64,000 bases of DNA, taken from NCBI GenBank assembly GCA_963664435.2, contig CAXXKM010000003.1:1184001-1248000 (forward strand), given 5' to 3'. The position numbers were made by a program, and so were the translations under genes. Position 1 is the stretch's first letter; each line of letters opens with the position of its first letter. The notes under the pieces are model-generated. The model had not been told where the DNA came from. It ran no database searches and saw only the letters and a program-made list of their open reading frames with translations. Shown here piece by piece: positions 1,162-18,505 of the stretch. The DNA is from Longimicrobiales bacterium (GTDB lineage: Bacteria > Gemmatimonadota > Gemmatimonadetes > Longimicrobiales > Gaopeijiaceae).

Positions 1162-1355
1162 CTCGCCGGTGGAAGGGGCGGGCTCCATATTGGATTCGAA
1201 CCGGAACCACGCGAGTCGAAGCGTCAATAGTGCCGCTGAACTCCCACTATTCGACCCGATTCTCCCGCTGTTCGACCATGACAGACCCCGATCACGACTC
1301 TACGACAAAAACCGCAGATCGTGCAGTCGTGGTTAGACTTAGGCGGTTTCTTGCC
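1162..1355 (+). repeat. Dispersed non-coding repeat, copy 1 (~190 bp)
   Basis: Aligns by eye with 6127-6318 over its length and with 18319-18441; core GCAGATCGTGCAGTC..GTTAGACTTAGGCGGTTTCTTGCC. Confidence 0.9.
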
Positions 1356-1379
1356 ACGGTACGCCCCCTTGGGAGGGGA

Positions 1380-1691
1380 TTACCGTACTTGTACACGCCA
1401 AGAGATCCGCGTTGCCTCGATCAAATCCAGCATTCGCGCTTCTCTCAGCTCGGTCATCCCAAGCGCTGTCACGTGGACATCGAGGCCATAAAGCCTTGCC
1501 CCTAGCGCCTTCACAATCCGCGCTTTCCCTCGCCCGATTTTCTCCCACTCGATATCGTCGTGGTGGACCAACAGTAGATCGATGTCGTCGGGCAAATCGC
1601 ACTCAACCGCCGACCCAAACATGTAGACTGCGACGAATCCCCTCCAAAGGGACGTGTCCGCGCTTTTCACTGCCTCAAGTACCCAAGTCAT
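1380..1691 (-). CDS. Minimal nucleotidyltransferase (MNT) domain protein
   Basis: YMFGS..DDIDLLLV Pol-beta motif; ATG overlaps the TGA of the upstream HNH gene (ATGA). Confidence 0.75.
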   Translation of the reverse strand: MTWVLEAVKSADTSLWRGFVAVYMFGSAVECDLPDDIDLLLVHHDDIEWEKIGRGKARIVKALGARLYGLDVHVTALGMTELREARMLDLIEATRISWRVQVR

Positions 1692-2848
1692 CCGAACTCT
1701 CGTCGAACCCACGAAAAAAAGGACTGTTGGTTATGTAACACCACGTTACACGACTGAGCAAGCTTCCCTGCCGCCCTACTCACAGGTCCTCCATTCCAAT
1801 TGTGGAGATTTACAACTATGTCCGGATCAGAAACTAACAGCTCGTTCATGGTCGCCTCCGACAGGCAGTACTCATAGCATAAGGCCACGTCGTAACGGTT
1901 TCCCAAGTTAAGTTCCCATAGTCGGCGGGGATCCGGGGTCGTGTACTCCACCCCGCGACGGTACAACCAGCGCAGGACATATACCAATCCATCTAGTCTG
2001 AGTGATGTAGTTTTTGGACGGTAGAGTCTTTGATTGAAATACAACTGGTGAATTCGTGGTCGGTTCGCCAAGTTCAAGTCCTTGATCTCTTCACCATTTC
2101 TATAAGCAAGGGTTTGATCATGAACAAGCTCCAGATGTATGAATCTGCCCTGGCGGATAAGCCTTGCGATGAGATTCTGAAGGGCGGCGACAGACGGCGG
2201 TAGCGAACCGTCTGCGGTTGCGAGACCGAAAATGGAATTCAGCTCCGAAGGAAACAACGACAAGCGTATTGGAGATTCAGCGGAGCGTGTCGTAGCAAAC
2301 TCCTCAACATGAAGACGAAAAAACTCAACAATCTCTTGATTCTCGATGTGGAGTAGTGCTTTGTTCCGCGATAGCATCACAACAAGTCGTTCGTTGTTTG
2401 AAACCAACTCGTTTTCGAAGAGTTCCCATAACTCATGGCGATCGCTGGCCTGTGCGTGATCAGCGTTTGGACCATAGCTGGCGATAATCTGACCGTTTCG
2501 TCGGAGAAGAGGAGTAACGGCTTGTGCGAGATTAGAAAAGGAGGCGTATCTCACGGAGAATCGTGCCCGGATTTCCCGATTCCGATCGATTTTCCACTGC
2601 CGAAGGCGAGTTTGGATTTCGTCGGCCGGTTGCTGGTCAACAAAGGTGTGGCAGTTTGGACAGAGAATAATGAGGTTTTCGAGCGAATTATCGTTGCCGA
2701 TGCGATAGGGCTCGATATGGGCCTTGTGAGCGACCGTGCTATCAGACGGGAAGAGATCTTCGTGACAGGAGGGATTCATGCAATGACCCATGCATTCGCA
2801 CCACAAGCGGCGCCGAACGGAAGCTGGAACGGCTTTTCGGTTAGGCAT
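1688..2848 (-). CDS. HNH endonuclease domain protein with long unknown C-terminus
   Basis: CMNPSC..AHIEP..NSLENLIILCPNCH HNH/zinc motif; lower GC than the housekeeping region. Confidence 0.85.
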   Translation of the reverse strand: MPNRKAVPASVRRRLWCECMGHCMNPSCHEDLFPSDSTVAHKAHIEPYRIGNDNSLENLIILCPNCHTFVDQQPADEIQTRLRQWKIDRNREIRARFSVRYASFSNLAQAVTPLLRRNGQIIASYGPNADHAQASDRHELWELFENELVSNNERLVVMLSRNKALLHIENQEIVEFFRLHVEEFATTRSAESPIRLSLFPSELNSIFGLATADGSLPPSVAALQNLIARLIRQGRFIHLELVHDQTLAYRNGEEIKDLNLANRPRIHQLYFNQRLYRPKTTSLRLDGLVYVLRWLYRRGVEYTTPDPRRLWELNLGNRYDVALCYEYCLSEATMNELLVSDPDIVVNLHNWNGGPVSRAAGKLAQSCNVVLHNQQSFFSWVRREFG

Positions 2849-3503
2849 GCGTTAAATCTCGACGACGCTAGGAGCGATGGCAAGATGCCTGGCACGAGGC
2901 ATTCCACGCCGACACACACCGAAAACAGGGGCTGGCGTGGAGGTGCTCAGGTCGCCGGATCGGTCACAACGGCCGCCGATCTCGGTGTCCGTCAGTGCCG
3001 GTGCGCTAACTGCTGCCCAGGCTGGGCCGAGTAGCTCAAAGGCGCCCGCACCCGTAGCCGAATACCCACGCCGCCTCCGCGACCTCCCGCCGGAATACCC
3101 GTCTGGAAGGCTCAGTCGCGGAACGAGGACCTCATGCCCGTGGGGAAGCCGCGGGATGCCAAAGCTGCCCAGTCAAAAGGGGACATCGTCGATTCCAGAA
3201 GCGGTCGCAGCGGCGACGGAGGAGGCCACGGCGTCCCCCCCTGAAGAGCTCTCGGGGACAACGAGACGCGGTGCTCCCGCCACGACGTGGCACGTCCTTC
3301 GGGCATCGTCCAAACCCGCCGATTCCAGGTCGATCTCCGCCCCCGCCACACGCACCTACCGGCTTCGACACGCCGCAGCACCACCATTCCAGCGTGAGTT
3401 TCGTGCTGAGGAGCGCGTCGGACGCGCTCAGCCGCACCAGGGCCACCGCAACCTCGCCGGGCGGCAAACTGATGCTGGACGCGAACGCCCCTGTTCGCGG
3501 GTG

Positions 3504-16597: not shown

Positions 16598-17992
16598 CTA
16601 GTCGCTGGGTGCATCTAGAATGAGACCGTCCCAATCTTCGACTTGGCCCTCGTGGATTACACGCAGGATTGCCCTCCGGCAGAGCTGCTGGGCGTCCGCG
16701 AGCAGAGAGCGGTCGTTGTGTTTCGACTTTCCTCCGTGGACAAGGCGGGAGGCGGCAGCGTATGCGCCGCGCAGGATCCTCCAAGCCTCGCGCCGGTCAG
16801 CAGCGTTCTCGCCGAGAAGCCAAGCCCCCCGAGCTGCAAGGGTGTAGCTCAACTGCTGATTCGTCCCTTCGGACAACAGCAGCGCTTCGAGTGCGATGCG
16901 GAGGTCAATCAACTGATCGGTGATTTCGGCGTAGGGGGTCAGCGATTTCTTCCAACGCGCCGCAGCAAGTCGCGTTCGGGCATCTGTATGGTCTAGCGCC
17001 GCGAGAAGCCTGCCAATCCTCGTTTTCGAGGGAGCGGGCGCCGCGCCATCGACAGGTTGGAGTGTTTTCACACCCGTCTCAAGGCTGAGGCTCCATCCGG
17101 AAGCTGGATCGATCGAGCGACTAGGTGTCCCCCAGGTCGTCCCGTTGTCCGCTATTGCCGACACGCCTCCGTAATCGTTCCACCCAAAACTCAGAGGGAT
17201 GTCGGCGTTGCACTCTAACGCCAGGGCCAAGCCGATGGTGTCGAAGCCGCCACATCGCGGAGCCAGCGCAGCGGTGACAACGCCGTTGAGGTCGTCGACA
17301 TTCGGGCGGAACAGGGCAGGCTCCGCCGTGGTCGCGACCTGAACGACAGACCGTCCCAAGTAGGTTTCAGCCTGGATGCCGCCCGAGGGAAGCCGCTTGG
17401 AAAGCGAGTCCGAAGACAGCGGCAGCGGGACGATGTCGATCCCGTCAATCGGAGTCATGGCTTGAGCGAGCCTGAGCGCCGCGACCCGGCAGGTGCGATA
17501 CTTCATGGGATCGCCACGGATCCAACCCGCGATGAGGTCGGTAACTCGGTCGACGCCAAGAATCGCCGCATCCTTGATCAAGGCTTCACCGAATTGCTCG
17601 ATCGACGAAACTGAAGCTTGGACGTGGAGACCGTTCGGTAACAACACGGACGCGCTTCTGCCATTTCCAGCTATCGGAAGAGCGTGTCCGACGCAGTCCG
17701 AAGCCGGATCGACGTAGCCTGACAGTGCCTCGCGCACACTACCCATCAGGTTGGTTCGGAGCGTCTCTGGCATGGAGACGCGGGCGTTTCTGATCATGGT
17801 CAGTGCTTGGCCGTGCCACGTTGCTCGTTCGTAGGCTCCACGCAGATTCTCGGCATCAATGCTCTCATCGGGACCGTGGCCGTAGCTCGTGCTGTGGAGC
17901 CCGTGGTGCTTGATCATGCGGCCCATGTCAAACGACGTCGCCGCCAACGCCCGACGCAAAGAAGTCCTGAGGTCTTGGACTGCGTTGGTCAT
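16598..17992 (-). CDS. HEPN domain protein (ApeA-like) with altered catalytic motif
   Basis: DQLIDLRIALEALLL..LSYTLAARGAWLLG..AYAAASRLVHGG. Confidence 0.75.
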   Translation of the reverse strand: MTNAVQDLRTSLRRALAATSFDMGRMIKHHGLHSTSYGHGPDESIDAENLRGAYERATWHGQALTMIRNARVSMPETLRTNLMGSVREALSGYVDPASDCVGHALPIAGNGRSASVLLPNGLHVQASVSSIEQFGEALIKDAAILGVDRVTDLIAGWIRGDPMKYRTCRVAALRLAQAMTPIDGIDIVPLPLSSDSLSKRLPSGGIQAETYLGRSVVQVATTAEPALFRPNVDDLNGVVTAALAPRCGGFDTIGLALALECNADIPLSFGWNDYGGVSAIADNGTTWGTPSRSIDPASGWSLSLETGVKTLQPVDGAAPAPSKTRIGRLLAALDHTDARTRLAAARWKKSLTPYAEITDQLIDLRIALEALLLSEGTNQQLSYTLAARGAWLLGENAADRREAWRILRGAYAAASRLVHGGKSKHNDRSLLADAQQLCRRAILRVIHEGQVEDWDGLILDAPSD

Positions 17993-18318
17993 ATGGGTCG
18001 TGGGCTAGGAGTCGGCGCTTGGAAAGCCGCGATCATCTTGCGAGGCCCCCCAGGAGGCCATGAAGGGGCCGGCCGTAGGCTGCACTCGCCCTTCGTGAGC
18101 CCTTGGTCACACATCGAAACAGGAATCGTGCTCCACGAGCCTTTGACGCCTTTCGTACCCCTCGGCTGGCGTAACGTCTTACGAAACTCCGCCGGACGAC
18201 GCACTCCAACTCTGCATGAATTGGGTGATGTCTCATGAAGATCGTGAACCTCTCCGCCGCGTTCTCGCCGTCCTTGTAAGCCTTACCGTCCGATCCAGCA
18301 GTCCGTCCCCCTCCGGTC

Positions 18319-18441
18319 CCGCTAAACTCCCGCTATTCGACCCGGTTTTCACGCTTTTCGAGCACGACAGGCCCGATCACAGTCTCACGGCAAGAACGGC
18401 AGATCGCGCAGTCCTGGTTAGACTTAGACGATTTCTTGCCG
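18319..18441 (+). repeat. Dispersed repeat, copy 5, next to the tRNA half
   Basis: Closely similar to 1233-1355 and 6196-6318. Confidence 0.9.
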
Positions 18442-18465
18442 GGATTCGCATCCCCTCTCAGGGGA

Positions 18466-18505
18466 TTGTAAGGCAGGCGCTCTGAACCAACTGAGCTAAG
18501 CGCCC
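18466..18505 (-). tRNA. 5' half of tRNA-Val(TAC), ending at the end of the anticodon loop
   Basis: Minus strand GGGCGCT TA GCTC AGTTGGTTCA GAGC G CCTGC CTTACAA, then TCCCC instead of the GCAGG needed for the anticodon stem; no T arm follows. Confidence 0.9.

Follow-up and report, generated by a model that had tools for sequence, protein, structure and literature searches.

Direct repeats in a Longimicrobiales defence island as putative integrase-distal ends of a tyrosine-integrase element family, and a second site, M, at the boundaries of its cargo

Introduction

In a 64,000-nucleotide stretch from a Longimicrobiales bacterium (the window, G000:C3:1184001-1248000, where G000 is the source genome and C3 one of its three contigs; unprefixed coordinates are window positions), gene blocks that include defence genes are separated by five direct copies of a repeat, the last beside a split transfer RNA (tRNA) gene. 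A preliminary description, made from the sequence alone, regarded the repeats as recombination or att-arm sites left by repeated integration that delimit an integron-like array of defence cassettes. The locus thus raises the question of what the repeats are and whether they cut the island into movable units. Judged from sequence comparison, the repeat (R) is the integrase-distal att arm of a family of tyrosine-integrase elements and not an attC-like cassette site. The five copies are probably distal arms of one integrase family: copy 5 ends an integrative and conjugative element (ICE), whose cargo likely retains copies 1-4 as relics of the ends of sister elements. Below, L denotes the integrase-side end of an element and M a second site, found beside copy 2.

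The repeat and its copies

A profile search confirmed five copies of R in the same orientation, at 1239-1361, 6202-6323, 9141-9209 (3' half only), 15800-15922 and 18325-18446, all of them between called open reading frames (ORFs), as had been reported. The profile built from these copies detected 47 copies in G000, on both strands and on all three contigs; the best match in the reversed genome had an E value of 0.97. The conserved unit is not the ~54-bp core first proposed but extends over ~122 nt, followed by 19-20 variable nt, a 7-bp crossover and unrelated DNA. The terminal inverted repeat said to bound the core, CGGCAAGAA/TTCTTGCCG, is perfect in copies 2 and 5 only. Strong folding was likewise found in these two (z of -4.0 and -4.4), while copy 4 gave -2.6 and copies 1 and 3 about -0.2; genome-wide, z was below -2 in 14/44 copies on the top strand and 17/44 on the bottom strand. 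Matches resembling R were present in most genomes of the genus. Copies scattered over the genome irrespective of defence genes had been named beforehand as a result contrary to the cassette reading, and such a scatter was found: some of the 47 copies adjoin genes for LRR/Ig-domain proteins instead of defence genes. An Rfam scan of window positions 1-32000 at E values up to 1 gave no match, and ARAGORN reported no whole tRNA inside the window. Readings of R motifs as integration host factor sites or promoters, made by eye against consensus sequences, were unconvincing. Two other arrangements of R were also noted: three direct copies among LRR/Ig-domain genes at C3:617000-633000, with no integrase, and two outward-facing copies at a common palindromic target at C3:705228-713698.

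Pairing of R with integrase-borne ends

G000 contains ~28 tyrosine integrases that are 60-81% identical to two query integrases, and a family integrase was present in 28 of the 50 family genomes sampled. Their identity as tyrosine recombinases follows from PF00589 and from residues R233, K260, H330, R333, W354 and Y364, invariant in 38 integrase sequences. The N-terminal domain is predicted to consist of strands 21-25, 32-38 and 41-46 and helix 52-63 (pLDDT ~75), with lambda Int as the top fold match. The family integrases match only Xer models, below the cut-off, and the best score in G000 against the IntI model TIGR02249 was 82 bits, with a cut-off of 265. Directly after each integrase stop codon we found the conserved end L, which carries twin GCGGGAA-type repeats; this motif also opens R, and twin repeats stand at both ends of the element.

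An inward-facing R was found within 60 kb of 23 of the 29 L ends, and for 22 of these 23 one such R carried exactly the same 7 bp as a direct repeat. Three further L-R pairs match across the C1/C2 contig ends, giving 25 paired elements; in the all-against-all comparison of L and R 7-mers, 52 of 1305 combinations matched, true pairs included. An intact element reads L (integrase end), genes, R, and the same 7-bp direct repeat stands at each junction. Lengths of the 25 elements range over 4-50 kb, and 19 different 7-mers are in use in this one genome. Ends without a partner are unequally distributed (20/45 R vs 4/29 L). The pairing upheld the earlier proposal of att-arm sites left by repeated integration.

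The pairing also bears on the idea that R is a dispersed element of the MITE (miniature inverted-repeat transposable element) or REP (repetitive extragenic palindromic) kind, unrelated to islands. R is dispersed on both strands and partly palindromic, as such an element would be. However, its pairing with integrase ends by exact 7-mers refutes this reading. Its crossover is 19-20 nt outside the conserved part, and the other end of the element is found at a distance of 4-50 kb, next to an integrase. In addition, in G008, which lacks an integrase match, the R query matched only a tRNA. This explanation is hardly credible.

The family is one of lambda-type integrative elements. With lambda-type tRNA islands it has in common a 7-bp crossover in the anticodon loop, an element-borne tRNA half and arm-type repeats at both ends, as described in PMC4383910 and PMC8138268, as well as an xis-like gene overlapping the integrase start and the predicted three-strand/one-helix N-terminal domain. 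It differs in that a single clade of ~28 copies uses its 19 7-mers within one genome, and in that tRNAs are used in both orientations, along with insertion sequence (IS) ends, palindromes and the family's own genes. The targets identified by 7-mer are the anticodon loops of tRNA-Val and tRNA-Pro, an IS481 end, two dispersed palindromes and the family's own integrase gene; M is the target-like partner of four R copies found joined to it. A 13-mer of the R core also occurs ~20 nt before 26-27 of 28 integrase starts, within the HTH_17-like gene that overlaps the integrase start. There (G000:C3:1153575; the same 13-mer is in all R copies) it forms the last codons of this xis-like gene. The 13-mer could be an Xis box or allow antisense RNA from R; its role as an Xis site, like that of the twin repeats as arm sites, is putative.

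Several observations concern the family at large. Some intact elements are nested with the same orientation; the C1/C2 ends hold a nest of three, which suggests a junction between the end of C1 and that of C2. Family members are inserted in a family integrase gene at G000:C1:1570023-1574047 and C2:111581-141242, with similar self-targets among relatives; two such insertions put an ATG at the junction, which could restart the cut integrase without its N-terminal arm domain. Among ~80 integrase ends of related genomes (L116-L195) we counted ~40 different crossover 7-mers, with targets in tRNA-Val, -Ile and -Leu and many inside genes. At G000:C3:713-833 an L is joined directly to an R, an attP-type junction inside the chromosome. 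The element at G010:C2:861699-912145 runs from an L at tRNA-Val to a distal end at the 5' half of a tRNA-Ile, which may reflect a chimera or a chromosomal rearrangement between two elements. C3:1129957-1145985 has a 16-kb inverted copy (99.9%) at a contig end, C3:1778193-1794204. The G005 integrase was considered as an A/B hybrid, and the comparison gave no support.

The 50-kb element in tRNA-Val

Copy 5 (18325-18472, + strand) is the working distal end of a 50-kb element. Its crossover 7-mer TTGTAAG (18466-18472) is the tRNA-Val anticodon loop in antisense, and it is the only R with a 7/7 match to the L at C3:1152405, to which copies 1-4 match at 3-4/7. The integrase expected to the left of the window was found 31 kb leftward, beside this L. 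The window had been described as free of recombinase genes; it contains no integrase of this family, apart from a 38-nt fossil of an integrase start at 6519-6556, though not every window ORF was scanned for other recombinases. The split tRNA is real: the displaced native 5' half of tRNA-Val(TAC) occupies 18466-18505 (- strand), 24 nt after the repeat end first given, 18441, and the element supplies a new 5' half 50 kb leftward. The right flank is a host gene with a DUF1028 domain (18515-19363, - strand; Pfam), which adjoins an intact, empty tRNA-Val site in G006 and G009. The copy 5 junction recurs with other cargo in G001, G005 and G058.

The element entered the anticodon loop in such a way as to replace the 5' half, and a second family member, on the other side, replaced the 3' half; therefore, the only tRNA-Val(TAC) of G000 is built of two element-borne halves. 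This two-part gene lies at G000:C3:1152266-1152340 between converging integrase genes, and at G005:C1:3041696-3041890 a tRNA-Val is inverted between element ends. Islands that leave a 5' fragment are known but uncommon, at 159 of the 3919 Islander islands reported in PMC4383910.

Between integrase and cargo the element encodes TrbC, VirB3, a VirB4-type protein, CagX, TrbI, TrbL, VirB8, a T2SSE ATPase and a TrwB/TraG coupling protein (the mating-pair formation set MPF-T), and it also carries ArdC. For the relaxase there was no Pfam or NCBIfam match, and Replic_Relax gave a lead with a score of 0.84 only. The element is probably an ICE. Three sister ICEs, 92-96% identical, coexist in G000; the one at C3:540-583 kb shares a backbone of this identity with the window ICE, while the integrases are ~71% identical.

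Copies 1-4 and the blocks between them

The leftmost block ends with mcrC (51-1130, + strand; Pfam PF10117). The mcrBC block (C3:1182047-1185151) is 88% identical to C3:560207-563330 in a sister element; the homology stops at window position 1151, and the sister has no R behind it. Copy 1 (1149-1386, + strand) comprises an inner extension, the R arm at 1239-1361, a 19-nt spacer and the 7-mer TTACCGT (1380-1386); it is unpaired and matches the L of the ICE at 3/7. The DNA to which it is joined (1387-1395, + strand) is the outer tip of an inverted repeat of the IS481 family, sharing a 16-mer with a known target. The same 16-mer follows the L ends at C1:736257 and C3:583631 and stands uninterrupted at C3:436644, and R copies in G010 and G012 are likewise joined to the outer tip of an IS481 end. 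A pattern search for IS ends over 81 family genomes found no further occupied outer ends among the matches listed.

The next block (1688-5584, - strand; ORFs and Pfam) encodes an HNH protein, a 393-aa ORF with an RSSSAH motif (3504-4685) and a DUF3800 protein; its DUF3800 part recurs (87%) at C1:441737-442879, where it abuts another R after a 455-bp gap. Copy 2 (6031-6342, + strand) consists of an inner extension, the R arm at 6202-6323 and a spacer of the tRNA-Ile type; it is unpaired, with a 4/7 match to the ICE L. It is followed by M (6343-6514, + strand), whose 7-mer CTGTGCA (6343-6349) stands at the family crossover distance from copy 2 and continues into a conserved right arm. The DNA at 6342-6514 is 95% identical to DNA that begins at an M site in G253. 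We rejected a decayed tRNA half after copy 2 because the same DNA occurs without R in other genomes, and an insertion of copy 2 in an xis gene was also rejected, as no alignment was obtained. The fossil integrase start after M (6519-6556, + strand) retains a ribosome site and the first codons (nhmmer E 4.7e-4; BLAST matches to integrase starts). The following block (6621-8890, + strand; Pfam) encodes a 260-aa hypothetical protein and a HEPN-domain protein (7604-8890), and a homologue of the former gene adjoins an M site in G253.

Copy 3 (9141-9250, + strand) is the 3' half of R running, as judged by eye, into an apparent degenerate M right arm; its crossover is lost, and it was not scored by the M matrix because the 7-mer is missing. 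The module behind it (9267-15491, both strands; Pfam/PADLOC) has a HATPase-kinase, a REC-like and a hypothetical gene on the + strand and an Eco57I-type methyltransferase gene on the - strand. It is 88% identical in metagenome locus L238 (12690-18914), where the first M stands before it and a partial R after it, and in the window it ends at the inner extension, 450 bp before the copy 4 crossover. Copy 4 (15491-15949, + strand) is present, as described, and the supposed interruption in it is a juxtaposition of two different things: an inner extension common to copies 1-2 (15491-15580) and the end of a different, IS481-targeting sub-lineage (15632-15922, with its R arm at 15800-15922 and the 7-mer ACGGTAT at 15943-15949). 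This copy is unpaired too. Together with its IS flank it has 87% identity to C3:540201-540726, the genuine terminus of a sister ICE, with which it groups at 100/99. IS remnants follow at 15950-16568: an inner IS481 end with the last transposase codons, to ~16030, and a fragment of another repeated element, 16184-16568. Finally, a 464-aa cargo ORF (16598-17992, - strand) is 68% identical at the DNA level to a gene in a sister element (C1:708508-709891) and has no family match.

The gene labels first given to these blocks were confirmed by Pfam for McrC, HNH, DUF3800, the HEPN protein at 7604-8890, HATPase and the methyltransferase, and weakly for REC. The HEPN or MNT labels of the ORFs at 3504-4685, 16598-17992 and 1380-1712 are unconfirmed because Pfam, PADLOC and NCBIfam gave no match in the scans covering them.

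With these copies in view, the proposal that R is an attC-like hairpin site, and that the blocks between repeats are cassettes moved by R x R recombination, can be weighed. The direct orientation, the intergenic position and the defence-rich blocks speak for it, as do the stable hairpin in copies 2, 4 and 5 and two modules bracketed by repeat-associated DNA in two contexts. However, several results contradict it. First, 25 of the 47 copies are ends of 4-50 kb elements. Second, no two of copies 1, 2, 4 and 5 have the same crossover 7-mer, and that of copy 3 is lost; since the two 7-mers of an intact element agree strictly (7/7), excision by R x R is unlikely. Third, the consensus boxes RYYYAAC and GTTRRRY are both present in only 6/45 copies, and IntI is absent. 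Fourth, the genes lie on both strands, and three window modules have homologues elsewhere, none of which ends at an R crossover. Contigs of four public runs cover the island arrangement, one of them spanning 6275-16134, and contained no joint of R to R at the crossover, though contigs drop rare variants and cannot show absence. Among four joints listed from these runs none joins two crossovers, and that between 5747 and 18352 carries letters of a C1 paralogue. The attC-like reading is thus largely refuted, and we consider it very improbable; R does not delimit an integron-like cassette array.

Site M

Copy 2 is joined to CTGTGCA-GCGTGCGGTC at the family crossover distance, and the M pattern is GC|CTGTGCA|GCRTG. 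M DNA occurs without R in relatives. The 17-base pattern gave 17 matches in 8 of 61 genomes (control, 1), a looser pattern 26 matches in 15 of 53 genomes of another genus (control, 0), and viral contigs none. All six M sites of G000 lie within family elements, facing the terminal R; no chromosomal site carries one. The arrays seen in relatives are direct and contain 2-6 M sites at distances of 1.3-15 kb.

Comparison of 59 M sites yielded 30 pairs that share flanking DNA (300 nt or longer, with an identity of at least 85% and in register with M), of which 17 begin at M, 13 end at M and none spans M. The pairs fall into about five start groups and about five end groups, and the count leaves out L237, L239 and G119, which are near-identical to L236 and L235 and would span M. 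Shared blocks begin 1-30 nt, mostly 1-6 nt, before the 7-mer and end 11-65 nt after its start. The first M, at C3:1175012, is where the backbone common to the window ICE and its sister stops, and the L238 copy of the module at 9267-15491 begins 46 nt after the start of its M 7-mer. G007 and G092, which belong to two genera, share a 5.3-kb unit, including a P450 gene, at 97% identity from one 7-mer to the next; its neighbours differ on both sides, and it recurs in G221. In four of the 59 sites an R is fused in front (copy 2 of G000, G001, G092 and G245); three of the four fusions carry the spacer type seen at tRNA-Ile, and M resembles a tRNA-Ile anticodon arm. In the M arrays, 11 of the 37 proteins scanned match PADLOC at E 1e-8 or better, including Gabija A and B, CBASS-type E1-E2/JAB, ShosT, Upx, PDC-S15, S28 and S31; the cargo also includes P450 and many proteins without a known family.

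These comparisons indicate that M is the boundary of gene blocks in relatives, and many of these blocks are anti-phage. The cassette array first proposed is not found at R, and a cassette-like organisation does exist in these elements at M, which directly follows copy 2. M may be an undescribed cassette-swapping system in a known kind of element. The right arm of M had seemed to resemble the C terminus of a LysR protein, and a LysR remnant found no support: there was no Pfam match and no full gene in 61 genomes, and the frames are broken. Just before the first M in L216:366-2732 and L249:16307-18787 lies a fusion of sensor kinase, response regulator and DNA-binding domain, a possible array regulator.

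M, and not R, resembles integrons in its direct arrays of short sites that delimit mobile, defence-rich units with different neighbours. It differs from them in that there is no IntI, M has no hairpin, the units measure 1.3-15 kb, often contain several genes and lie on either strand, and M looks like a double-stranded core with a fixed 7-mer. The XerCD/pdif modules of Acinetobacter plasmids are likewise bounded by short simple sites without an internal recombinase, but the pdif sites flanking a module are described as inverted (PMC9771954), whereas all M arrays are direct. M appears to work like an integron or pdif array site but falls outside both definitions.

Candidate enzymes for M

A Cre homologue (C3:1172339-1173319; E 3e-29) lies 1.7 kb before the first M and offers one candidate: a Cre-like recombinase would move M-bounded units, and its M x M resolution would also yield orphan repeats. 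M follows the Cre-like gene on the same strand in 19/27 loci (a tally that leaves out G228, at 2.5 kb, and one G021 fragment), and the G058 element has neither the Cre-like gene nor M nor an internal R. On the other hand, M is missing from 8/27 loci, and the symmetry of M is weak, its arms matching at ~5/12. The Cre-like gene is, moreover, framed by its own inverted, perfect lox-like palindromes, whose spacers co-vary and are unlike M, which weakened the idea of M as a palindromic target of that gene. This candidate is improbable. Lox-like palindromes were seen at most of the 25 Cre-like loci examined, and the lox-flanked gene (G000:C3:1172280-1173500; L003:4280-5500) stands head to head with an 859-aa fn3/SWM surface-protein gene.

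We favour the family integrase because M has no hairpin (z near 0, and below -2 in 0 and 3 of 45 sites), has weak symmetry and has half-sites that score like the main family's targets (means 1.8 and 2.5, against 1.7 for family targets and -3.4 for random sequence). It is the most likely, putative enzyme for M. Several points weigh against this choice. No integrase or L end was found within 1.5 kb of 14 new M loci, and none of 29 own and ~80 foreign integrase ends carries the 7-mer of M and copy 2. Units from M to M lack both arm types, while arm-domain integrases normally need arm sites, according to the account in PMC8138268. Host functions might also recombine the ~20 bp of shared sequence at M.

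History of the island

We consider nested insertion to be the likely history of the island. Sister elements would insert into the cargo of the ICE in the same orientation, at targets including IS481 ends and M. Recombination between near-identical backbones, or between two M sites, would then delete the inner half with the integrase, so that the newcomer's cargo and far end stay proximal and older cargo is pushed outward. The repeats would then punctuate the cargo without being excisable units. Exchange of cargo would take place chiefly at M, a simple site of core type whose 7-mer is fixed, and the family integrase would most likely carry it out. Copies 1, 2 and 4 are joined to sequences that serve as targets elsewhere, and in mapped elements 14 of the 16 internal R copies without a partner point in the direction of the terminal R; the G011 and G058 elements have no internal unpaired R.

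Accretion as in the ICESt1/ICESt3 type, involving ICEs, integrative mobilizable elements and cis-mobilizable elements, and matryoshka elements offer a parallel: direct distal att sites pile up and bound the cargo of decayed elements, and elements nest, as set out in PMC5704250 and PMC7563491. Accretion as described there keeps the target core at the internal att site, whereas here the 7-mers are unlike (copies 1-4 match the tRNA-Val 7-mer at 3-4/7) and the targets foreign; therefore, nested insertions of sisters with other specificities are indicated.

The internal R copies might instead have come by RecA-type block swapping between sisters, with the M right arm as the left handle and the inner extension plus R as the right one, and with no nested insertion. 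Shared modules do reach only as far as the extension's inner edge (1151 for mcrBC, 15491 for the ATPase module), the sister ICEs are together in one genome, and SXT/R391 hybrids are reported to arise in this manner (PMC5812530). However, block swapping alone leaves unexplained the exact crossover distance of copies 1, 2 and 4 from known targets (IS481 ends and M), and the R copies are only ~70-87% alike. We regard it as unlikely. In SXT/R391 tandems and hybrids, co-resident sisters recombine, delete and swap defence-rich regions between conserved flanks (PMC5812530), and P2/P4 hotspots also have a defence-rich variable region between conserved flanks (PMC13586616); what differs here is that a short fixed site, M, cuts the variable region up to six times.

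A further possibility, to which we give somewhat less than an even chance, is an analogue of integrons on double-stranded DNA. Cassettes of 1-10 kb without arms, many of them for defence and bounded by the M site that resembles the tRNA-Ile anticodon arm, would be excised as circles and reinserted at M by the lambda-type integrases of the family, perhaps in arm-less forms that arise from insertions into each other's integrase genes. Incoming sisters would use M and leave their far ends there.

Nested insertion, which we prefer, has evidence against it as well. No near-identical genome with an uncollapsed island was found, and no deletion was caught between two strains. Two of the 16 internal orphan copies face the opposite way, and copies 1, 2 and 5 group together, weakly (97/68). 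In addition, homologous block swapping would leave similar traces, and the module edges in L238 lie off the crossover.

Implications and other features of the window

R alone is an ordinary att arm, and novelty rests mostly on M. In the literature searched (subscription journals and supplements outside scope) we found no description of the element family or of M. If M works as a cassette site, it would represent a cassette system without IntI, hairpins or dif sites in conjugative elements of uncultured Gemmatimonadota from sponge-labelled samples, and with its 17-base pattern the limits of candidate defence systems could be placed to the base. A sponge metagenome is the only labelled run to contain more than half of the stretch, and the related loci are labelled Longimicrobiales/Gemmatimonadota. 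Even if M is inactive, the 25 mapped integrase-target pairs with 19 7-mers in one genome form a natural series on target change by arm-domain integrases, and the element family would explain the growth of a defence island by nested insertion.

Other features lie to the right of the island. A type I-U-like CRISPR-Cas locus occupies 20612-31600 (GSU0053, GSU0054 and Cas3 by Pfam), with an array of ~34 repeats from 29179. Upstream of the cas genes, at 20429-20473, stands a lone degenerate repeat that could serve as a regulatory mini-array. Finally, a 29-bp inverted repeat with a 14-nt loop is present at 47726-47797, and three direct 31-nt repeats at 58376-58988.

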